26,075 nucleotides of DNA from Candidatus Hydrogenedentota bacterium (GTDB lineage: Bacteria; Hydrogenedentota; Hydrogenedentia; Hydrogenedentales; CAITNO01). The DNA is taken from assembly GCA_903902895.1 (NCBI GenBank), contig CAIUWO010000484.1, forward strand, positions 1 to 26,075, written 5' to 3'. Of this stretch, positions 6,778 through 26,075 are shown piece by piece. The notes below the pieces were generated by a model. It was not told the DNA's origin, did not search any database, and worked only from the letters and a program-made list of their open reading frames with translations. How positions within the stretch are numbered: position 1 is the first letter of the stretch; each line of letters starts with the position of its first letter. Made by a program: the position numbers and the translations under genes.

Positions 6778-6941
6778 TTGAATTCCAATTCGTGTCCCCC
6801 ATTTATTCGCGCTAGCGACACGCCGTTGTTAGGGAAGCCCGGAGGTTGGGTGGCGGGCACAGTGTGCCTTATCAGATTGCCACGGGTCTGCAAAGCCGTA
6901 CTCAAGTCGGGTTGTTGGCGCGGCGGGGAAAGACGCCCGGG

Positions 6942-7532
6942 TTACAGCAACCTTTCCAATTCGTCGTTTGGAATGCACAGCGGACGAATATAGCGGATCT
7001 CGCCGGCCTTCACATCGTAGATCTCCATAATCGGTCCCTCGGGCACGCCCCGCTCAATGAAATGTCGGTTCATCGCCGGATAAACCCGTCTTGCTCCGAC
7101 GGCTATCGACGTGTGCCCGCGGAACGGGAAGCGCGCCACCACCGCCCAGCCGCCCGGCAGCAACGCCATGCGGAACTGGGGAGATGTCTTCTTCAAGGCA
7201 TCCGCCTGGTCCGCCGTCACGACGCACCCGCCCAGGCTGCGCAGATTGTCCTTCCCCGTCTTGAGCGGATTGTCGAAAAACAGGGCGCATCCAAGCTCCG
7301 GGACGATGCCGTGGGTCTCGCTCAGCTCGCGGCACACCCCGGCCCATACGGGGCCAATAAGCTGATAGGGGCCCGAATGCGTGTTGTAGGCGACCCAGAT
7401 GGGATCGAGTATTTTCGTCTCCGGTCTTACGGGCTCAAACAAGCCGAAGCGCCGCGCAAACCAGTACAACGCGGCAATATCAACCGCTATCACGAGGATC
7501 ACGACACCAGCAATCACCTCATTCATCGGCAT
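6942..7532 (-). CDS. membrane-anchored GyrI-like (AraC effector-binding-type) small-molecule-binding domain protein
   Basis: ATG at 7532 is preceded by AAGGAGGTGA. There is an N-terminal TM helix (VIAGVVILVIAVDIAALYWF), then a ~150-aa domain with a GyrI-like pattern (KILDPIWVAYNTHSGPY...PELGCALFFDNP...FRMALLPGGWAVVARF...GPIMEIYD). The overlapping plus ORF 6846..7637 is Arg-rich nonsense. Confidence 0.4.
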   Translation of the reverse strand: MPMNEVIAGVVILVIAVDIAALYWFARRFGLFEPVRPETKILDPIWVAYNTHSGPYQLIGPVWAGVCRELSETHGIVPELGCALFFDNPLKTGKDNLRSLGGCVVTADQADALKKTSPQFRMALLPGGWAVVARFPFRGHTSIAVGARRVYPAMNRHFIERGVPEGPIMEIYDVKAGEIRYIRPLCIPNDELERLL

Positions 7533-7844
7533 GGGTCACCTCCTTTGCCGCCCCTGGCCCCCGCGCCTGTCCGCCGCTCCCACGGGAACCATACGCCCAT
7601 ACCCACCTTAACCGCAAAGTTCGCGCATCCTGCATGAAATGTGCACGCAGTTCCACCTCGACTTCTGGAGACCCGGCGGGGAGGCGCCCTCGTTGGCCTC
7701 TTGTTGCCCGCAACTGACTCTGCAGGCCGGAAATAGACCGGCAACCGCGTGAACAGTCCCTGCCCAATCTCTTGCGAGCAAGCCTGCCTGGCGGCGATGC
7801 AGACCGAGGGGTTTGCCCCCGCGCCCTTGAGCGGATGATATCGA

Positions 7845-8252
7845 CTATTTGTTTACACGCGAATGCAAAGATCCCCGCCGCCCAAGTTGCCCAGGCGGGT
7901 GTCCACCCAAAAGGTAGACTTTCACGGGAATCAGTCCGTCACTTTCATGTAACTCGTGGATCGCCGCGTGGGACAGGTCAATCACACGTCCCGCCACATA
8001 GGGTCCACGGTCGTTGAGCTTGCAGACTACCGCGCGGCCATTGGGGGCAACGACGAGGTAGTAATCGCCGAACTTTCCGCGGCGCATGGCGCAGGTGAAT
8101 CCCTCATCCCGCAGCGGGTCGCCGGAAGCGGTGATGGAACTGCTCTCGCGTGTCGTGTAATACGAGGCTATGCCTTCGGCAACAGGCTGAATAGGCTGCG
8201 AGGAAAGCAGTACCAGCACCACAAATTCAAACATTCCGCATGGTGTCCTCAT
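7845..8252 (-). CDS. RlpA-like double-psi beta-barrel (DPBB) protein, secreted
   Basis: Signal peptide (MFEFVVLVLLSSQPIQPVAEG), then the RlpA/DPBB signature GIASYY...TASGDPL...FTCAMRRGKFGDYYLVVAPNGRAVVCKLNDRGPYVAGRVIDLSHAAIHEL. ATG at 8252 is preceded by AGGAGG. Confidence 0.65.
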   Translation of the reverse strand: MRTPCGMFEFVVLVLLSSQPIQPVAEGIASYYTTRESSSITASGDPLRDEGFTCAMRRGKFGDYYLVVAPNGRAVVCKLNDRGPYVAGRVIDLSHAAIHELHESDGLIPVKVYLLGGHPPGQLGRRGSLHSRVNK

Positions 8253-8551
8253 GTTGCCTCCTGCAGGACACGCGCACCCCTATGTCAATCGCGCTGTATT
8301 CGTACCAGTTACAGGCTGCTACGTGCGCCAAACGGGAACCTTCGCTTGATTGCTGCGTTTCTGCCATGCTCATTCACCTCCCTTCCATGCATATCAGGAC
8401 TTTCATCCAGATTTGGGATGGGTGTTGCATGCCGGTCGTTACCGAACCCCTTGTTGTCGCATCGTCCTGATTAACGTGCGATAGTCGCTTTTCTTTGGTT
8501 TTAATGGCGGTGTCACATGCCGCAACCGCCATGAATCAGCCAAATTAATAG

Positions 8552-8569
8552 AGCAAGATATGCGCCAAA
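8552..8569 (-). promoter_or_regulatory. sigma54 (-24/-12) promoter facing the RlpA-like gene
   Basis: The minus strand reads TTGGCGC-ATATC-TTGCT, i.e. TGGCGC-N5-TTGCT, with the GG and GC dinucleotides 12 nt apart exactly as in the consensus TGGCAC-N5-TTGCW. The predicted TSS is ~8541. Confidence 0.5.
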
Positions 8570-8669
8570 CATGGAAAAACCTGGCCTTTCGCGACAACCC
8601 CTTGGGATGCAGGGCCTTAGAAAAACGGCCCTGTCAAGTTCGTAGAAAGAAGAGGGGGAGGGCGTTGGA

Positions 8670-8730
8670 TTCTATGGAGTGTGTTCCATAAATGTGGAAT
8701 CCAACCCAATTTCCGCAGGTTCAGCAGGGA
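8670..8730. promoter_or_regulatory. conserved ~60-bp palindromic UAS-like element, copy 1
   Basis: TTCTATGGA-gtgtg-TTCCATA-a-ATGTGGAAT-ccaac-CCAATTTCC-gcaGGTTC. Three TGGAA/TTCCA half-sites are arranged as TATGGA-N6-TCCATA plus TTCCA-N6-TGGAA. It lies ~105 bp upstream of the -24 GG of the sigma54 promoter at 8552-8569. It is ~80% identical to the 25386-25446 element. Confidence 0.5.
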
Positions 8731-8913
8731 GGATCAAAGAACCTGTCCAGGGCGCGCAACACGCGCAGACAAAGCGCTTGACGGCACAGAAGTACGGCTG
8801 AATGTGGACCCGGCCGTGGGCGGGGTGGACGGCGCGACGGCATCTGACGAAGCAGGGCCCAATTAAGCAGCCCGGCTCAGACCAGATTCCAGGCACTCAG
8901 CGTTTGCACAGGT

Positions 8914-11421
8914 TCAAGAAAGGCCGGAAGATGGCTGGCCGTTGTGGAGCATTTCGCTCACCCTGACGACCAGATCCCTTTCGGAGAAAGGCTTCGTGAT
9001 GAAACAGGCCCCGTCACCCGGCATGCCGCCGCCGAAAGTGATCTCGTCCGCATTGCCGGACTTGAACAGGACCTTGCTCTTTGGGTGGAGAAACAGGATG
9101 TTTTGGGCCAGAATGTGGCCGCTCATTTCCGGCATGGTCACATCGGTCATCAGCAGATCAATCTCTCCAGTGTATGCCATGGCCAAGTGGAGGGCGGCGC
9201 CCGGAGTGTTCGCCCGCAGCACGCTGTGCCCGTCATGTTCAAGCACCGACGCGGCCCATGCCATGAGGTCCAGGTTGTCCTCGACCAGCAGGATGGTCCC
9301 CTTGCCGGGCATGGGCGGCGGCGATGACGTTTCCGTCGGCTCCAAAACCGCCCCACCCGCATGGCGGGGCAGATAGATACTGAAGGCCGTACCGTGCCCT
9401 ACCTCGCTGCGGACTTCGATGAAACCACCGACCTGTTTGACAATGCCATAAATGGTCGCCAAACCCAAGCCCGTGCCTTTGCCCACCTCTTTTGTTGTGA
9501 AAAACGGCAAGAATATCTTGTCCAGCGTTTCACTGTCCATGCCGCAGCCGTTGTCGCTTACGGTGAGTACCACATACTCCCCGGGCGCAACGAATCCGTC
9601 GTCGCCGCGTTCGGATTCAGTGATGCTGCGGTTCTCTGTTCCCAGGGCGACATTGCCGGTGTCGGCGATGGCGTCCCGCGCGTTGATGCAGAGGTTGGCC
9701 AGAATCTGGTCTATTTGGGATGGGTCCATCAAGACCGTCCAGAGACCCTCCCCAGGAGACCAGTCAAAGACAATTTTCCTGCCCATCACCGATTGAAGCA
9801 CCTCGAGCAGGCCCGTTACAGCCTCGTTCAGGTTCAGCACCACGGGCTCGACACTCTGCCTGCGGGCAAAGGCCAGCAGTTGGTTGGTCAGGGCGGCGGA
9901 GCGGGTGGCGACCTTGTGGATTGTTTCCAGGTCGGCGCGCAGCGTTTGCTCCAGCGACCCGTTGCCAAGCGCCAGCTGGGTGTAGCCCAAGATCACAACC
10001 AGCATATTGTTGTAATCGTGGGCCAGACCGCCCGCCAACCGGCCCAAGGATTCCATTTTGTCAGCCTGCCGAATCTGGTGTTCGCTCTTGACCCTGTGCT
10101 CCTCAAACCGCTTGCGGTCGCTGATGTCCCGCAGGAACGCGGCCATCAGCCCGTCTTCGATGGCATAGTGCTGGACACTGATCTCGACATCATGAATCGT
10201 GCCGTCCTTGTGGCGGTGCCGTCCTTCGAAACGATCTTCGCCCTCTGCCCTTATTTTCTCTATATGGGCGGCGATGTTCTCGCCCGTCTCGGCGGCGTCC
10301 AGGTCGGCGATGTTCATGCCCATCAGTTCCTGTGCGCTATAGCCGCTCATCCGGCAATACGCGTCATTGACCTCCAACAGACGACCCCGCATGTCCGTCA
10401 ACCAAAAGCCGTCCATGGCCGCATGAAGGATGGTTCTGTGCCGTCCCTCCCTTTCCTGCAGCGCCTGTTCCGCCCGTTTGCGGTCAGTGATGTCCCTGGC
10501 GATGCCCTGAAAAGCAGTGAGCGGGTCTGCCGCATTCTTGAAAGAGACCGCACTTGAGGTGTGCCAGCGCCATGTGCCGTTGATGTGCCGCACGCGATAC
10601 TCGATGCCCTCCTGTCGTTGTCCCGTCTCGGTCACGCGGCGCAAGAATGCCCGGCATTCCTCAACGTCATCGGGATGGACGAATGACTCGAATGAACGTC
10701 CAATCACCTGTGCCGTCGGGTGGCCGAGAACTGCGGTCCAGGCAGGAGCGACGAAGGTAAACAGCCCGGCGGCGGTGATCGTATATATGATGTCGTAACA
10801 ATTCTCGACCAAGAATCGGTACTTTTCCTCGCTCTTCCGCAGTTCCTCCTCGGCCTGCTTGCGGTCGCTTATGTCGGCGAGCACGACATGGCACAAAGGC
10901 GGGCGGTCTTCGTCCCAGGCGACGGTCGCATCAAGATGGGCCCAGAAGGTCGTCCCGTCCCCTCTTGTCAGTCGCAGGCCATGTGCCTGCGCCTTGCCTG
11001 TCTCAAAGAGCCGCTTGCTGGTCAGATAGTAAGCGTCCTGACCCTCTTTGGCAAGGAACGTGAAGAAACTCTGCCCGACCAGCGCGTCGCGTTCCACGCC
11101 CAGCAAGCCGGCGGCGGCAAGATTGGCCTCCACGATGAGCCCCCACTCGCTGAGCGTGCAATAACCCACCGGCGCAAGGTCGTACAGGTCGGAATAGCGC
11201 GCCCGGGCCGCGTCCAGCTCCAACTGTGCCTGGCGCAAATACTCGTTCTGCATCTCCAACTCAGCCTGATGGACGCGCAGTTCGTGCACCGTTCGCCGCA
11301 GTTCTTCCGGTGCCAATAAGCCGGAGTCTTCCGGCGAGCGGTCCAAGCCGTGCCGCACACTCTCTTCCGCCTGCTGCCGCAACTCAGGGGCGTTGCGGGG
11401 TTTCCTGTCCTTGCTTTTCAT
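8914..11421 (-). CDS. cytoplasmic PAS/PAC hybrid sensor histidine kinase (coiled coil, three PAS domains, HisKA, HATPase_c, C-terminal receiver)
   Basis: No TM segments. An N-terminal coiled coil is followed by three PAS-like blocks. H-box ESLGRLAGGLAHDYNNML. HATPase motifs NLCINARDAI, DNGCGMD, GTGLGLATIYGIV. Receiver domain ILLVEDNLDL...LLMTDVTMPEMSG...KPF. ATG at 11421 is preceded by GGGAG. Confidence 0.85.
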   Translation of the reverse strand: MKSKDRKPRNAPELRQQAEESVRHGLDRSPEDSGLLAPEELRRTVHELRVHQAELEMQNEYLRQAQLELDAARARYSDLYDLAPVGYCTLSEWGLIVEANLAAAGLLGVERDALVGQSFFTFLAKEGQDAYYLTSKRLFETGKAQAHGLRLTRGDGTTFWAHLDATVAWDEDRPPLCHVVLADISDRKQAEEELRKSEEKYRFLVENCYDIIYTITAAGLFTFVAPAWTAVLGHPTAQVIGRSFESFVHPDDVEECRAFLRRVTETGQRQEGIEYRVRHINGTWRWHTSSAVSFKNAADPLTAFQGIARDITDRKRAEQALQEREGRHRTILHAAMDGFWLTDMRGRLLEVNDAYCRMSGYSAQELMGMNIADLDAAETGENIAAHIEKIRAEGEDRFEGRHRHKDGTIHDVEISVQHYAIEDGLMAAFLRDISDRKRFEEHRVKSEHQIRQADKMESLGRLAGGLAHDYNNMLVVILGYTQLALGNGSLEQTLRADLETIHKVATRSAALTNQLLAFARRQSVEPVVLNLNEAVTGLLEVLQSVMGRKIVFDWSPGEGLWTVLMDPSQIDQILANLCINARDAIADTGNVALGTENRSITESERGDDGFVAPGEYVVLTVSDNGCGMDSETLDKIFLPFFTTKEVGKGTGLGLATIYGIVKQVGGFIEVRSEVGHGTAFSIYLPRHAGGAVLEPTETSSPPPMPGKGTILLVEDNLDLMAWAASVLEHDGHSVLRANTPGAALHLAMAYTGEIDLLMTDVTMPEMSGHILAQNILFLHPKSKVLFKSGNADEITFGGGMPGDGACFITKPFSERDLVVRVSEMLHNGQPSSGLS

Positions 11422-13303: not shown

Positions 13304-15474
13304 TATTTTCCTGATTTCAGCGCCCGTGTGGGGCCCGCAGCCCCGGTTCGCCTCGTGCGGATGCCCTCCAGGGCGGCCAGCAGCGCGGCGCGCGTGATTA
13401 GCACCTGCTCCCCCCCGGGGGGTGGGCTGTCCGGTCCGCGTTTCGCCAGCGTCTCCCGGATGGCCCCGATGGCGGCGCTTTTGCATGCGGCCTGAACCTC
13501 TGCCCCTGTGAAGCCGTCCGAGGCGGCCGCCAGTTCCTCGGTGCTCACGTCCTCCGCCACGGGTTTCTTGCGAAGGCCTATGTCGAAGATTTCCCGCCGT
13601 TCTTCCTGGCTGGGCGGCATGATCTCGATCAGAACGTCGAAACGGCCGGGCCGCAGCAGTGCGGGATCGAGCGCATCGAGACGGTTCGTCGCCGCCAGCA
13701 CGACGACACCCGTCAGTTCCTCCACGCCGTCCACCTCGGTCAGAAACTGGCTGACGACGCGCTCCGTGACGTGGGCGTCGGTGCCACCCGAACCGCGCAC
13801 CGGCACCAGGCCGTCAATCTCGTCGAAAAACACAATGCACGGCGCGGCCTGCTTTGCCTTGCGAAAGATTTCGCGCACGGCCTTTTCGGACTCGCCCACG
13901 TATTTCGACAGGAGCGACGGACCTTTAACCGAAATGAAGTTCACCTCGGTCTCATTGGCCAGGGCCTTGGCAACCAGCGTCTTCCCGCAGCCGGGGGCGC
14001 CCGAAAGCAGGATGCCCCTCGGGGGCGTGGTGCCCGCCTGCGTGAAGAGTTCGGGATGCCGCAGCGGCCATTCCACCGCCTCCTCAAGCTGCTGTTTCAC
14101 ATGCCGGAGCCCGCCGACATCGGCCCAGCCCACGTCGGGAACCTCCACGAAGACCTCGCGGATGGCGGACGGCTCCACCTCGCGGAGGGCCTCGGTGAAA
14201 TCATGCATGAAGACGCGCAGCTTCATCAGGGACTCATAGGGAATCCGTGCGGCGGCAAAATCAATCTCCGGCATGATTCCCCGCAGACACACCATGGCCG
14301 CCTCCCGGGCGAGAGCCTCCAGGTCAGCGCCCACGAATCCGTGGGTGATTGCCGCAAGCTGGTCAAGGTCCACGTCCTCGGCGAGGGGCATGCCCCGTGT
14401 GTAGATCTCCAGGATTTCCCGCCGTCCGTTGCGGTCGGGAATGGGCACGCAGATTTCCCTGTCAAAGCGGCCGGGCCGCCGCAGCGCGGGGTCAAGCGCG
14501 TTTGGAATGTTCGTTGCGGCAAGGACAATCACATGCTCGCGTTTGGCCAGTCCGTCCATCAGCGCCAACAGTTGCGCCACCACCCGCTTTTCCACCTCGC
14601 CCAGAACCTGGTCGCGCCGCGGGGCGATGGCGTCGATCTCGTCGATGAAGATGATGCTTGGGGCCTTGCGCGCGGCCTCCTCAAAGATCTTGCGCAGGTG
14701 GGCCTCGCTTTCGCCGTAGAATTTGTGCACGATTTCCGGGCCGTTTACGGAGAAGAACGCCGTCTCGGTCTCGTGGGCCACGGCGCGCGCGATCAGGGTT
14801 TTTCCGCAGCCCGGGGGCCCGTACAGCAGCACCCCCTTCGGCGCGGCCACTCCCAGGCGTTCGAAAACTTCCGGATACCGCAGCGGCAGTTCCACAATCT
14901 CCCGAATGCGGTCAATTTCCCGCCGCAGACCGCCAATGTCCTCGTACGAGATCGCGCTGGACTCTTCGCTCTTCTCGGCGCGCCCCACTTCCATCGTCGT
15001 GGTTGAATTGATAACCACGGGGCCTTTGGGCGCGGTGCTGGTCACCTTGAAATCCACGGAACGCGTTCCGAACAGCGTGGCCCGGATACGGTCACCGACC
15101 ACAACCGGCGTGCCGTCGAGGAGACTGCCGATATAGGTCAGGTCCCGGTCGCGCGGGGCCGTCGTCACCGGCACAATGCACACGCGCTGCGCCGGGCTGG
15201 CCGAAATCTTTCGCACTTCAACCATCTGGTCCAGCGCGGTGCCCGCGTTCTCCCGGGACAGTCCGTCAATTTGAACGCGAGACTGGCCGCGCTGTTCCTT
15301 GTAGGCCGGCATGGCCTTGCATACGGTTTCCCGCTTGCCGACGATGGTCACGATATCGCCAATCTCCAGGCCGAGCGCGGCCATGTCTGCGGGGTCCAAC
15401 CGCGCCAGACCGCGGCCGGCATCTTTGCCCGAAGCTTCGCTGACCTTCAACTTCACCGTCTTGGTCGCTGTCAT
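13303..15474 (-). CDS. Cdc48/VCP-like AAA+ ATPase (N-domain plus D1 and D2 AAA modules)
   Basis: A Cdc48-type N-domain (KLKVSEASGKDAGRGLARLDPADMAALGLEIGDIVTIVGKR) is followed by two Walker A motifs (GVLLYGPPGCGKT and GILLSGAPGCGKT), each with Walker B (IIFIDEID and IVFFDEID) and second-region-of-homology arginines. ATG at 15474 is preceded by AGGAAGGA. Confidence 0.85.
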   Translation of the reverse strand: MTATKTVKLKVSEASGKDAGRGLARLDPADMAALGLEIGDIVTIVGKRETVCKAMPAYKEQRGQSRVQIDGLSRENAGTALDQMVEVRKISASPAQRVCIVPVTTAPRDRDLTYIGSLLDGTPVVVGDRIRATLFGTRSVDFKVTSTAPKGPVVINSTTTMEVGRAEKSEESSAISYEDIGGLRREIDRIREIVELPLRYPEVFERLGVAAPKGVLLYGPPGCGKTLIARAVAHETETAFFSVNGPEIVHKFYGESEAHLRKIFEEAARKAPSIIFIDEIDAIAPRRDQVLGEVEKRVVAQLLALMDGLAKREHVIVLAATNIPNALDPALRRPGRFDREICVPIPDRNGRREILEIYTRGMPLAEDVDLDQLAAITHGFVGADLEALAREAAMVCLRGIMPEIDFAAARIPYESLMKLRVFMHDFTEALREVEPSAIREVFVEVPDVGWADVGGLRHVKQQLEEAVEWPLRHPELFTQAGTTPPRGILLSGAPGCGKTLVAKALANETEVNFISVKGPSLLSKYVGESEKAVREIFRKAKQAAPCIVFFDEIDGLVPVRGSGGTDAHVTERVVSQFLTEVDGVEELTGVVVLAATNRLDALDPALLRPGRFDVLIEIMPPSQEERREIFDIGLRKKPVAEDVSTEELAAASDGFTGAEVQAACKSAAIGAIRETLAKRGPDSPPPGGEQVLITRAALLAALEGIRTRRTGAAGPTRALKSGK

Positions 15475-16029: not shown

Positions 16030-17460
16030 TCATGGTTGAGATATCTTATATTCCTTCACCTTGACGTGTATTGTCTTATAGTCCACGCTCAGTATCCGGG
16101 CGGCTTCCGCCTTGTTCCACCGGGCGTGAATCAGAACCTCCGTGATAACCTGCTTCTCGATGTCCGCCACGGTCTTTCTGACCACTTCTTTGAGCGACAC
16201 ATTTCCCGCGATGCAGTCTATTTCTGTGATCTGCTGGACCGTGTTGGAGGCCGCCTTTTCCTTTTTTGGACTAATCGTCATGTTCTCCGGCAGGATGTAT
16301 TTGTCGCACCGCAGTGCCGCCTGCCGAATGACGTTGCGCAGTTCGCGCACGTTGCCCGGCCACTCAAAGGCAAGGAGCAGTTCCACAGCCTCCTGCGAGA
16401 AGCCCAGAATGTCTTTGGTCAATTCCGCCTTGGCGGACATCAGAAAGCGGGTGGCGAGAAATATGATGTCCTCCGGACGGTCACGCAACGGGGGGATGCT
16501 GATGCTGAATTCACTCAGCCGGTAATACAGGTCCTTTCGGAAAAGATTTTTCTGCACCATGGCGCCCAAATCCTCGTTGGCCGCGCCGACCACGCGGATA
16601 TCCACGTCAATGGGCCGGATCCCGCCGACACGCCAAATCTTCCTCTCTTCCAGCGCGCGCAGCAGTTTGGCCTGGAGCGCGAGGGTAAGGTTTGATATCT
16701 CGTCAAGAAAGAGCGTGCCTCCCGAGGCCATTTCCATCTTGCCGGGCTGTGACTGATGCGCGCCGGTATAGGACCCCTTCTCATGCCCAAACAGCTCGCT
16801 CTCTATGAGCGTCGGGGTTATTGAGCCGCAGTCCACAGGCACGAAAGGCCCCTTCGCGCGGTTGCTCAGGCGGTGGAGGCCCTCCACAATCAATTCCTTG
16901 CCGGTGCCCGTTTCACCGGTGATGAGCACGGTGAAGTCCGTGGGGGCCACAAGTTCAACGCTGGCTATCAGGGCGGCGATCTGCCTTCCCGTGCCCATCC
17001 GTTCGGCGAGAGACTCATGGCCCTCAATGCCGTTGGCATGCGAACCCAAGTAGGGGTAGCGCTTCCTGAGCGCCTTTTGCACGGCAACGATGAACCTTTG
17101 AAGGTCAAACGGCTTTAGCAGATAATCATCGGCGCCGCTCTTTATGGCCTGCACAGCCATGTTGATGTCGCCGAAGCCTGTAATCAGGATCACGGGCATG
17201 CCCGGATAGATTTTCTGTATCTGCTTGAAAAGCTCCATCCCGCCCATTCCAGGCATTTTCAAGTCCGTCACCACCACGTTGACCTTCTCGTTCCGAAGCA
17301 CTTCCAGGGCGCCCTCCCCCGTTGTTGCCTCGAGCAGGCCGCACCCCAGATTTTCGATGGCCCGGCATAACAACGCGCGCACATCATCCTCGTCATCCGT
17401 GACGAGCACCCGACCCCATTCCTTGTCCTCTGTCTTCAAAGCATCGAACTCCTTCGCCAT
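16030..17460 (-). CDS. sigma54-dependent Fis-family response regulator (NtrC-type enhancer-binding protein)
   Basis: Receiver domain (VLVTDDEDD...VVVTDLKMPGMGGMEL...KPF). Sigma54-interaction AAA+ domain (VLITGETGTGKELIVEGLH, and ESELFGHEKGSYTGA as a GAFTGA-type loop). C-terminal Fis HTH (NKAEAARILSVDYKTIHVKVKEY). Confidence 0.9.
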   Translation of the reverse strand: MAKEFDALKTEDKEWGRVLVTDDEDDVRALLCRAIENLGCGLLEATTGEGALEVLRNEKVNVVVTDLKMPGMGGMELFKQIQKIYPGMPVILITGFGDINMAVQAIKSGADDYLLKPFDLQRFIVAVQKALRKRYPYLGSHANGIEGHESLAERMGTGRQIAALIASVELVAPTDFTVLITGETGTGKELIVEGLHRLSNRAKGPFVPVDCGSITPTLIESELFGHEKGSYTGAHQSQPGKMEMASGGTLFLDEISNLTLALQAKLLRALEERKIWRVGGIRPIDVDIRVVGAANEDLGAMVQKNLFRKDLYYRLSEFSISIPPLRDRPEDIIFLATRFLMSAKAELTKDILGFSQEAVELLLAFEWPGNVRELRNVIRQAALRCDKYILPENMTISPKKEKAASNTVQQITEIDCIAGNVSLKEVVRKTVADIEKQVITEVLIHARWNKAEAARILSVDYKTIHVKVKEYKISQP

Positions 17461-24081: not shown

Positions 24082-24885
24082 TTACTTGCGTCCGCGCCGC
24101 GCCTCGGGCTTGGCGGGCTTGCCGGCCGCTTTGGCCTTGGTCTTTACGGGCGCGGTGTCGGGGGCCTTCGCCTCCGGTCTGGGCGCGCTGACGGCGGGGG
24201 CAGACTGCCTGGTCTCTGCTTTGACGGGCGCGGCGGTGCCAGCCCATGCCTGACGGACCCCGGCGAGGTCGGCGGAGACGGCCTCGCGCAGGGCGTTTAC
24301 GTGCGCGCGCAGTCCGTCGAGAATCTCGGTGCGCGTCGCAAAGTCCTGCGAGGCTTCCTCAATGCGCCGGGCCTCCTCGTCTCGCCGGGAACTGTCGCAT
24401 TCCGCGAAAGTTTCACGCTGCGCCTCGGCCATCTCGTCATGGGCCGCTTGAAACACCACGCGCAGGACATCGACCTCGGCCTTGAGCTCCTCAACCCGCC
24501 CGCAGACCTTGGCTACGAACGCGGCCCGGGCCTGTTGGAGCCTGTCGGCTTCGGCAAGCCTTTCGGCCTCGTTCGCGGCGGACTCATCGCGCACGAGCGC
24601 GGCCCGGTCGGCATGGCCTGTGCGCAATTCGGTCCGAAGTTCCTCGCTCGCCTGGGCGCGCGCCGCATTCCACGTCGCAAGCAATGAGGCGACGGCCTCT
24701 TTCGAACTCTGGGCGAATGCACGCTGCTCTTCCATCAATTCGCGGCGTCCGTTCCGCAATGCGCCAATTTCGTCGCTGAGCCTCGTCATGTCATCGGTAA
24801 GTGTTCCCACAGCTGTTCTCCTCTGGTTATAGACGTTAAAGTGTTCGCCGGTTGACGGACGAAGAGTTTCGCCCGCCAACGTCAT
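24082..24885 (-). CDS. alpha-helical repeat protein at the gvpC position (candidate vesicle-surface protein) with a Lys/Ala/Pro-rich basic tail
   Basis: Start taken at the ATG ending 24885 (the track begins at a TTG two codons earlier). There is an internal duplication: ELMEEQRAFAQSSKEAVASL versus EMAEAQRETFAECDSSRRDE. The C-terminus reads APVKAETRQSAPAVSAPRPEAKAPDTAPVKTKAKAAGKPAKPEARRGRK. It starts 29 nt after the gvpA stop. Confidence 0.6.
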   Translation of the reverse strand: MTLAGETLRPSTGEHFNVYNQRRTAVGTLTDDMTRLSDEIGALRNGRRELMEEQRAFAQSSKEAVASLLATWNAARAQASEELRTELRTGHADRAALVRDESAANEAERLAEADRLQQARAAFVAKVCGRVEELKAEVDVLRVVFQAAHDEMAEAQRETFAECDSSRRDEEARRIEEASQDFATRTEILDGLRAHVNALREAVSADLAGVRQAWAGTAAPVKAETRQSAPAVSAPRPEAKAPDTAPVKTKAKAAGKPAKPEARRGRK

Positions 24886-24914: not shown

Positions 24915-25133
24915 TCACGCGGGGGCGGCTGCGGTCGCGGTCAGCCCGATTGCCTCGGCATATTTGAGATAGGTTTCGACAGACGCAATCACCACGCGGG
25001 CTTCCACCGACAACAGTTCTATTCCAACGAGCGAAACCTTGACCCAGGCGTCGATCACAATGCCTTTGTCCAAGATGCGGTCCACGACTTCCGCCAAACT
25101 GGAACTGTCTGTTGATTTCTGTATTTTTGCCAT
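24915..25133 (-). CDS. gvpA: major gas vesicle structural protein GvpA
   Basis: [65 protein letters not shown] is near-identical to canonical GvpA. Start taken at the ATG ending 25133, preceded by AAAGGAG (the track begins at a GTG two codons upstream). Confidence 0.9.
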
Positions 25134-25264
25134 ATCCACTCAACTCCTTTCCGTTTGGAAACCCTCTTTCATGCCGGACTGACGCCTCACGGGCGTCAGC
25201 ACTGCGTGCCGGTGTCCTGACGGCTGGCCCGAAGTGGCCCGGCTCTTGGCGCAACGACTTGGAT

Positions 25265-25283
25265 AAAGCAATACGCATGCCAA
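25265..25283 (-). promoter_or_regulatory. sigma54 (-24/-12) promoter of the gvpA operon
   Basis: The minus strand reads TTGGCATGCGTATTGCTTT, i.e. TGGCAT-N5-TTGCT, with GG and GC 12 nt apart as in the consensus. It is ~120 nt upstream of the gvpA ATG. A sigma54 activator is encoded in the cluster. Confidence 0.55.
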
Positions 25284-25385
25284 CCGCAGAAACAACACCG
25301 GCTCCGCGATAAAACCCTGTTTTACTGAGGTTTGGAAAGGCTCTCTCCCAGGCCATCCCCCCAAGAAGCGCCGGTGACCGTTCGC

Positions 25386-25446
25386 TTCTATGGATTCTGT
25401 TCCATAGTATGTGGAATAGTTCCCAATTTCCCCGGTTCCACAAGCG
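25386..25446. promoter_or_regulatory. conserved ~60-bp palindromic UAS-like element, copy 2
   Basis: TTCTATGGA-ttctg-TTCCATA-gt-ATGTGGAAT-agtt-CCCAATTTCC-ccGGTTC. It lies 106 bp upstream of the -24 GG of the gvpA sigma54 promoter. Motif order and spacing match the copy at 8670-8730. Confidence 0.5.
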
Positions 25447-25709: not shown

Positions 25710-26075
25710 TCACCGGCTGGGGGGGGTTGAACAAGACTGGCCCAAGCAAGGGCAGTGTTGGACGGGGCACGCTTCCCGCAATTCACGGACCTGCGCATAC
25801 AGCCGGTCTAGCATTTCGGCGCGCGCGACAAAAACCCGCTGGGCCTCGCCGATGCGCTTGGTCTCCACAGCGCGCCTGGCGCTGTCGCAAGTCTCAAGAG
25901 TTTCGCGCTGCGCCGCCGCCATCTCGGCATGCGCGGTGAGCAGGCCCTCGATGCCGGCCCTTATCTCTTCGACGCGCGCACACACTCCCGCGAGAGACCC
26001 CTTGCGCGCGCGGCGCCGCTTCCAGGCCGGGGCGTCCGCGTTTTGGACGGACCCGCACTGCGCCTTCACAAGAGC
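25710..26075 (-). CDS. partial paralog of the 24082..24885 repeat protein; N-terminus beyond the window edge
   Basis: VCARVEEIRAGIEGLLTAHAEMAAAQRETLETCDSARRAVETKRIGEAQRVF aligns with VCGRVEELKAEVDVLRVVFQAAHDEMAEAQRETFAECDSSRRDEEARRIEEASQDF. DNA similarity is visible at 25840-25960 versus 24330-24460. The C-terminus differs (ends CPVQHCPCLGQSCSTPPSR), so it is either diverged or frameshifted. Confidence 0.45.
   Translation of the reverse strand, partial: ALVKAQCGSVQNADAPAWKRRRARKGSLAGVCARVEEIRAGIEGLLTAHAEMAAAQRETLETCDSARRAVETKRIGEAQRVFVARAEMLDRLYAQVRELREACPVQHCPCLGQSCSTPPSR

Follow-up and report, generated by a model that had tools for sequence, protein, structure and literature searches.

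Why should a gene for a secreted RlpA-like protein be preceded by what looks like the control region of a gas-vesicle gene? The question is posed by a stretch of 26,075 nt from Candidatus Hydrogenedentota bacterium (contig CAIUWO010000484.1 of assembly GCA_903902895.1), here called the window, which carries a gas-vesicle (gvp) cluster with every gene on the minus strand, as assigned from Pfam and NCBIfam domains. Two elements of the same kind, each composed of an enhancer and a sigma54-type promoter, are found in it: one stands before the intact gvpA gene (copy 2), the other, at 8552-8730, before a gene encoding a stand-alone double-psi beta-barrel (DPBB) protein (copy 1). An earlier note on this DNA had read the pair as a sign of a small regulon in which the RlpA-like protein is controlled together with the gas-vesicle genes. 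The answer favored here, with a probability of roughly 0.6, is that copy 1 is a remnant of the ancestral gvpA promoter, probably captured by the DPBB gene, and that the association is specific to this lineage and does not represent a conserved regulon.

An enhancer and a sigma54 promoter in two copies

Copy 1 contains, at 8673-8710, two tandem dyads of the TATGGAA-N4-TTCCATA type (coordinates of the features are collected in Table 1). The core of the proximal one, TATGGA-N6-TCCATA, occurs exactly twice in the window (8673-8690 and 25389-25406; 0.22 occurrences are expected from shuffled sequences), one further match with two mismatches falling within a coding region, and it is invariant in the gvpA promoters of four related loci (L013, L014, L031, and L025). 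In the distal dyad the half nearer to the promoter, ATTCCACA, is conserved and the half farther from it degenerate; the element ATGTGGAAT-N4-CCCAATTTCC to which it belongs is likewise present exactly twice (8692-8714 and 25409-25431; none expected from shuffles). Since a full TATGGAA-N4-TTCCATA palindrome occupies the distal position in the more distant clusters L025, L032, and L035, the enhancer consists of two dyads; their centers are 20 bp apart in copy 1 and 21 bp apart in copy 2. Over the enhancer block the copies share 44 of 56 positions (79%) with a 1-nt offset, and no third copy of the motif was found in the window with three mismatches allowed.

The -24/-12 element of copy 1 (GG at 8566/8565, GC at 8554/8553) is intergenic; it lies between the stop codon of a histidine kinase gene (8914) and a small open reading frame (ORF) that precedes the DPBB gene, on the same strand as these, and points at the DPBB gene. 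Exact matches to TGGC-N7-TTGCW number three in the window against 0.68 expected, a count reached by 4 of 100 shuffles; two are intergenic on the minus strand (8552-8567 and 25267-25282), and the third (13470-13485, plus strand) is within coding DNA. The distance from the end of the palindrome to TGGC is 105 nt (copy 1) or 106 nt (copy 2), and that from its center to the GG of the -24 region 116 and 117 nt, respectively. A sensitive blastn search aligns 8548-8722 with 25263-25438 (E = 3e-11). Thus, the second enhancer-like element and its correctly spaced promoter, as well as the orientation of the latter toward the DPBB gene on the minus strand, are as the earlier note had described them. From the consensus spacing, transcription from copy 1 would be predicted to start near 8541.

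A scan of 6800-9100 for sigma70 promoters and terminators returned a single promoter-like match, inside the enhancer itself, and no terminator on the minus strand; between the kinase stop codon and the DPBB gene there is neither a sigma70-like promoter nor a minus-strand terminator. The predicted transcript has at its 5′ end a hairpin that lacks a U-tract and lies in a segment of 35 nt inserted relative to copy 2; its function as a terminator was ruled out by the same scan. Between the enhancer and the -24 region, a block of the spacer is common to L013, L014, and L031 and is poorly kept in copy 2; it is possibly a site for a DNA-bending protein.

Copy 1 as the probable former gvpA promoter of the cluster

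The similarity of the two copies does not end at the promoter, a fact overlooked in the earlier note. It continues through the ribosome-binding site and the ATG to about codon 28-34 of gvpA, and 8284-8386 is matched to 25050-25152 by sensitive blastn (E = 8e-11). The small ORF behind copy 1, called gvpA' here, gave no BLASTP match to GvpA, the sequences being too short; global alignment was used instead and yielded a score of 37, as compared with 10.7 +/- 4.3 for shuffled sequences, none of 2,000 reaching 37. As this ORF (8227-8367) gives no Pfam Gas_vesicle match either, the full-length domain being absent, it is a remnant and not a shell-protein gene.

The homology to gvpA stops at ...GTGTC (8267-8271), and at 8257 begins a match to the DPBB gene of relatives, its native leader and start included (GCAACAnnAGGA...ATGTTTGA), which places the junction, read by eye from the alignments, about 25 nt before the DPBB start; the remainder of the approximately 290-bp upstream region seen in DPBB orthologs is absent. 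That the leader might be native to the DPBB gene was rejected, the upstream regions of the orthologs showing no alignment with 8260-8550. The stop codon of gvpA' overlaps the start codon of the DPBB gene that agrees with the orthologs (ATGTTTGA, 8227-8234); translation of the two could be coupled, and the geometry of the overlap may equally be due to chance. At least five independent assemblies contain this arrangement and differ in no more than 2-3 single nucleotides; it is therefore not a misassembly.

Which of the two copies is the older resident became apparent from related clusters, which were reached via orthologs of the sigma54 activator encoded in the window (62-64% identity) and by scanning for the motif. 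L013 and L014 both have the order gvrA-gvpH-cdc48-gvpF2-gvpF3-HK-RR (histidine kinase and response regulator), followed by the enhancer with a TGG-N8-TTGCT promoter, gvpA, and a gvpC-like gene, with gvpN next in L014; L022, L023, and L035 share this layout, and L031 contains the part from the promoter to gvpN. In this clade, the gvpA promoter normally follows directly on the last regulatory gene, which is where copy 1 is located, and copy 1 would accordingly be the ancestral gvpA promoter. Sequence identities agree with this position: the spacer of copy 1 is 63% identical to that of L013 (copy 2, 39%), and its -24/-12 block is 84% identical to those of L013 and L014 (copy 2, 63-68%). Judged by location and identity, copy 1 is the positional ortholog of the gvpA promoters of the relatives, and their closer relative. 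The gene order of the window is a circular permutation of that of L014, with a promoter and a gvpA 5′ end at both ends, the intact gvpA operon now being located upstream of gvrA. A foreign origin of the gvpA operon found no support, as in both operons alike the genes of the window stand farther from L014 than do those of L013 and L031.

The region 8227-8730 would then represent the ancestral gvpA promoter of a cluster of the type found in Serratia, with one operon headed by gvpA and another headed by gvrA. Its most economical origin would be that the two-operon unit was duplicated in tandem and that deletions followed, one of which would have extended from about codon 34 of the old gvpA to a point some 25 nt before the start of the resident DPBB gene and would have removed the DPBB gene's own upstream region of approximately 290 bp. 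In some species the two operons are known to occur in inverted order (Tashiro et al. 2016, PMC4982088), and the remnant looks like the footprint of such a swap; it would show how two gvp operons can exchange places, which was noted among proteobacteria by the same authors and left unexplained. That a gene acquires a promoter by deletion or fusion, and that operons are reshuffled by duplication and loss, are general evolutionary mechanisms. As in other captures of this kind, the upstream region of the DPBB gene itself is gone and the promoter of a deleted neighbor has taken its place, with a truncated pseudogene at the junction; unlike in these, the promoter concerned is enhancer-dependent, stems from a gene cluster for an organelle, and its remnant would record a swap of gvp operons. 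A single deletion would thus suffice to place a neighboring gene under an enhancer-dependent promoter.

Decay, use, and the alternatives

Whether copy 1 is still in use was judged from the positions at which five working gvpA promoters (copy 2, L013, L014, L031, and L025) do not vary. Copy 1 keeps 26 of 27 such positions in the enhancer, 10 of 10 in the -24/-12 element, and 10 of 10 in the region of the ribosome-binding site, as opposed to 42 of 62 in gvpA codons 1-34; for enhancer and promoter together (36/37) versus the coding part (42/62), Fisher's test gives p = 2.8e-4. Codons 18-34 of gvpA' are 53-55% identical to close gvpA genes and 47% to that of L025, where functional genes share 73-96% among themselves. 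The coding part has drifted far and the control elements have not, which argues for continued selection on the promoter. Further, as the upstream region of the DPBB gene is lost and neither a sigma70-like promoter nor a terminator follows the kinase gene, the remnant promoter is the obvious source of DPBB transcription. A phosphorylated GvrA-like activator would bind both dyads and, by looping, contact sigma54-RNA polymerase at 8552-8567 and open the promoter; the predicted transcript would comprise a leader of approximately 290-300 nt with the gvpA' ORF and then the DPBB gene, which would be switched on together with the structural genes for the gas vesicle. Shared control of gvpA and the DPBB gene is plausible, then, as a trait confined to this lineage which would have arisen by rearrangement.

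Several points weigh against this interpretation. The decay analysis concerns one lineage, and its alignment was anchored on conserved motifs; a truncated GvpA, if harmful, could decay faster than neutral sequence and exaggerate the contrast, and the contigs of the same species are almost identical, so that they offer no test of constraint at the population level. Read-through from the kinase gene could be an alternative source of DPBB expression. This kinase is itself not orthologous to gvrB/gvrC of the relatives, which means that the site has been remodeled more than once. The spacers of copies 1 and 2 are only 44% identical; either the duplication is old or copy 2 evolved fast, and the route by duplication and deletion is a model that we infer from the present arrangement. 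With respect to the machinery, no rpoN gene lies within the window, and the loop of the activator that contacts sigma54 (L1) reads GSYTGA, a variant of the canonical GAFTGA.

In a rival reading, copy 1 is an inert fossil, a promoter and enhancer left behind by the deletion and now silent or purposeless, and the DPBB gene owes its expression to an unrecognized promoter or to read-through out of the kinase gene. This is somewhat unlikely. It would agree with the fact that the element can be shown to be a gvpA remnant, that the kinase and DPBB genes have no terminator between them, and that the association is found in this lineage only; it does not sit well with the loss of 20 of 62 positions in the adjoining gvpA codons while 36 of 37 positions of enhancer and promoter, and every one of the 10 at the ribosome-binding site, were kept. 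The spacer of copy 1 is near saturation relative to L014 and L031 (48-51%), and under uniform neutral decay the motifs, too, should have been struck. Deletion of the native upstream region of the DPBB gene also means that some replacement promoter was needed.

Going beyond a captured promoter that is merely in use, the capture may have been adaptive, in that a secreted DPBB protein which binds or cleaves peptidoglycan came under the two-component, sigma54-dependent switch for gas vesicles, or, as a variant, in that the retained gvpA-like leader tunes the expression of gvpA. We regard this as quite doubtful; if true, the wall would be remodeled at the time when rigid gas vesicles fill the cell, and a benefit of co-expression would have to be assumed.

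The regulon proposed in the earlier note, if meant as a purpose-built and conserved one with an RlpA-like wall enzyme as functional partner of gas vesicles and possibly with further members, has the two promoters of the window with their common enhancer and geometry in its favor, as well as the constrained appearance of the enhancer and promoter before the DPBB gene. Identical geometry is explained by common descent and is no independent evidence for such a regulon, a spacing of 104-107 nt being conserved among the gvpA promoters of at least five clusters; two identical promoter architectures 17 kb apart are tempting as a sign of co-regulation, and here they would be the remnant of a duplication. 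The DPBB gene was compared with eight orthologs of 60-72% identity, mostly from metagenome-assembled genomes (MAGs) of Candidatus Hydrogenedentes. In none of the eight was the palindrome (up to two mismatches) or a -24/-12 element (up to one mismatch) present in the 311-500 bp upstream, and none adjoins gvp genes, the neighbors being cinA or other genes; conversely, the related gvp clusters L013 and L014 do not contain the DPBB gene. In addition to the lack of a third motif copy in the window, scans of sequence collections (see below), which do not include the source genome, recovered from this species copy 1 only, on contig L029. The titles and abstracts searched show no link between RlpA and gas vesicles, and just two papers mention both at any place in the text. 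A conserved regulon is therefore highly improbable. Of the original proposal, there remain a common activator for both promoters, which is very probable, and the plausible shared control in this lineage; a conserved tie to the DPBB gene does not.

It is barely credible that the element was kept for a role unrelated to the DPBB gene, with the leader as a decoy to a regulator that controls gvpA post-transcriptionally or the enhancer as a docking site that buffers the activator: the ribosome-binding site and first 17 codons of gvpA' are indeed better kept (73% identity to copy 2) than codons 18-34 (55%), and the ORF is open for 46 codons, but such an ORF is not unlikely by chance, the structure of the leader is not unusual, Rfam gave no match, and the arrangement, being confined to one species-level lineage, is without comparative support. 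A riboswitch or other structured leader was likewise dropped, as the 317-nt leader folds no better than shuffled sequences (z = 0.21) and the window contains no Rfam match at gathering thresholds.

The activator site and the genes of the window

Table 1. Position of the elements and genes referred to in the text
Feature	Position	Strand	Sequence	Basis or remark
Secreted stand-alone DPBB (RlpA-like) gene	7845..8252	-		Pfam DPBB_1 (PF03330), E = 6e-11, 42.9 bits vs cut-off 28.8
Decayed, truncated gvpA remnant gvpA' (46-codon ORF)	8227..8367	-	MAETQQSSEGSRLAHVAACNWYEYSAIDIGVRVS...	homologous to GvpA residues 1-34
Fusion junction	8258..8271	-		alignments read by eye
Retained gvpA ribosome-binding site	8375..8382	-	GGGAGGTG	alignment with relatives
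Hairpin at 5′ end of predicted transcript	8504..8532	-	ATGGCGGT...ACCGCCAT	in insertion relative to copy 2
Sigma54-type -24/-12 element, copy 1 (TGGCGC-N5-TTGCT)	8552..8567	-	TGGCGCATATCTTGCT	exact TGGC-N7-TTGCW match
Conserved spacer block between enhancer and -24	8590..8616	-	GGCCCTGCATCCCAAGGGGTTGTCGCG	alignment with relatives
Proximal enhancer dyad, perfect 18-bp palindrome	8673..8690	-	TATGGAACACACTCCATA	center at about -140 from predicted transcription start
Distal enhancer dyad	8693..8710	-	ATTGGGTTGGATTCCACA	repeat counts and alignment with relatives
Hybrid PAS histidine kinase with receiver domain	8914..11421	-		domain search; last gene of regulatory operon, directly upstream of enhancer copy 1
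GvrA-like sigma54 activator (receiver, AAA+, Fis-type helix-turn-helix)	16030..17460	-		Pfam Sigma54_activat, E = 3e-63
Intact gvpA, 72 aa	24915..25133	-		NCBIfam GvpA, E = 1e-39
Sigma54-type -24/-12 element of intact gvpA	25267..25282	-	TGGCATGCGTATTGCT	exact TGGC-N7-TTGCW match
Enhancer copy 2, before intact gvpA	25389..25431	-		exact motif counts

For the wider distribution of the enhancer, sequence collections were scanned for ATTCC-N5-6-TATGGAAC-N4-TCCATRG. Among the genomes representing 185,579 species there were five exact matches, which by a rough calculation is about the level of chance; two of these are clearly real, in a deltaproteobacterial and a Nitrospiraceae MAG, each located directly after a homolog of GvrA (41-42% identity). 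These two loci, L016 (2905-3020) and L018 (2380-2505), have two tandem TATGGAA-N4-TTCCATA palindromes with a TGGCA-N7-TTGC promoter 60-70 bp downstream. In L018 (Nitrospiraceae), three ORFs follow the promoter; the second encodes a receiver, and the first and third were judged by eye to be STAS-like and CheA-like. It would seem that this activator subfamily and its site also serve elsewhere than in gas-vesicle clusters. Metagenome contigs gave 17 matches, at least seven of them at the position of the gvpA promoter in a gvp cluster and four more next to GvrA-like genes; in five of the former, L013, L014, L031, and L025 as well as L029, which is of the same species as the window, a sigma54 element lies 104-107 nt from the motif.

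The activators adjoining the motif have in common the recognition helix DYKT..K.KEY of the helix-turn-helix (HTH) domain; it is present in the GvrA of the window (DYKTIHVKVKEY) and in the activators of L013, L014, L016, L018, L021, L024, L025, and L030. The GvrA-like activator of the window is the presumed binder of both enhancers. A description of a GvrA-binding site was not found in a search of the literature, and the site of two dyads given here is derived from comparison only; two TATGGAA-N4-TTCCATA dyads located 104-107 nt upstream of a -24/-12 element would be a candidate site of the GvrA family across several phyla, which could help in the engineering of gas-vesicle reporter clusters.

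Classical enhancers of the NtrC type, for example that of glnAp2, are composed of dyad sites in tandem, located 100-150 bp upstream of a sigma54 promoter. The dyads of the window resemble them in being about two helical turns apart (20-21 bp) and centered about 140 and 160 bp before the predicted start, and the activator resembles those of NtrC-type systems in combining receiver, AAA+, and Fis-type HTH domains. They differ from glnAp2 in the recognition sequence, TATGGAA-N4-TTCCATA, and in the variant recognition helix; further, the distance between enhancer and promoter is strikingly fixed in the gvpA promoters.

In Serratia sp. ATCC 39006, gvpA1 is transcribed from a sigma54 promoter that depends on GvrA, an NtrC-family protein (Ramsay et al. 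2011; Tashiro et al. 2016, PMC4982088). The cluster of the window follows the same two-operon plan, a gvpA operon and an operon of the order gvrA-gvpH-AAA (gvpZ)-gvpF2-gvpF3-sensor kinase; as in Serratia, the gvpA operon comes first, gvpA is preceded by a consensus -24/-12 element, and the activator is encoded within the cluster. It differs from Serratia in stemming from an uncultured lineage, which the best DPBB matches place probably in Hydrogenedentota, in having a second, remnant gvpA promoter after the regulatory operon which is fused to a non-gvp gene, and in its kinase, a hybrid whose fused receiver replaces the separate gvrC, in place of distinct gvrB and gvrC genes. Copy 1 is, in this regard, a new example of the known kind of gvpA promoter dependent on GvrA and sigma54 and not a new regulatory principle.

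In order of transcription, the window encodes gvpA, a gvpC-like gene (269 aa, coiled coil), gvpN, two small unknown genes, gvpF, gvpG, an ArsA-like ATPase, gvpJ, gvpK, and a second gvpJ-like gene, followed by the sigma54 activator, a GvpH/Hsp20 gene, a CDC48-type AAA gene, two gvpF/L genes, and the hybrid PAS histidine kinase. The intact GvpA is 97-99% identical to those of L013 and L014. The kinase shares only 28-30% identity with gvrB/gvrC of the same two loci, as compared with 76-82% among those relatives; over its first 188 residues it has 54% identity to a PAS protein whose gene lies 3.7 kb upstream of gvrA in L013. From these identities, the sensor module of the window's cluster has been swapped.

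The DPBB protein is best started at the ATG at 8234 (MFEF...), which agrees with the orthologs, these beginning with MFEI or MFQ...; the longest ORF starts at 8252. The protein matches PA4485 of Pseudomonas aeruginosa (PDB 4AVR; E = 6e-11) and, like this protein and the DPBB of RlpA, is a single double-psi beta-barrel with aligned TASG and NDRGP motifs. Unlike RlpA lytic transglycosylases, it has no SPOR domain in a Pfam search and no lipobox cysteine in its N-terminus (MFEFVVLVLLSSQPIQPVAEG), and it scores below the cut-off of NCBIfam rlpA (TIGR00413; 57.7 vs 82.15 bits); an activity of this kind is putative only. "RlpA-like" is a fair label for it, as distinct from RlpA itself. Several Hydrogenedentes MAGs (L005-L009) have cinA, an intergenic region of approximately 260-290 bp, and then the DPBB gene, and these regions do not align with one another. 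An apparent downstream synteny with L008, both having a 1,223-aa gene, was rejected as a coincidence, there being no similarity by tblastn. A 748-bp contig (L037, 1-748) has the 3′ half of the DPBB gene identical to the window and an unrelated 5′ part with its own TGGCACGCAACTTGCT element; it is probably a chimeric assembly, or else a structural variant, and, with a DPBB fragment of 93% identity and unrelated sequence upstream of mid-gene, was of no use for the test of constraint.

Two further observations concern the ends of the window. The gvpC-like gene downstream of gvpA, the protein of which had no recorded match in a look-up, has a paralog upstream of the gvpA promoter in an ORF (25710-26069) that runs off the end of the window, and a 146-nt repeat of 71% identity is formed by 24299-24444 and 25789-25934. 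At the other end, the gene at 18-1784 encodes four PASTA repeats, with a periodicity of 204 nt in the DNA, fused to a formylglycine-generating-enzyme (FGE-sulfatase) domain, which is an unusual combination.

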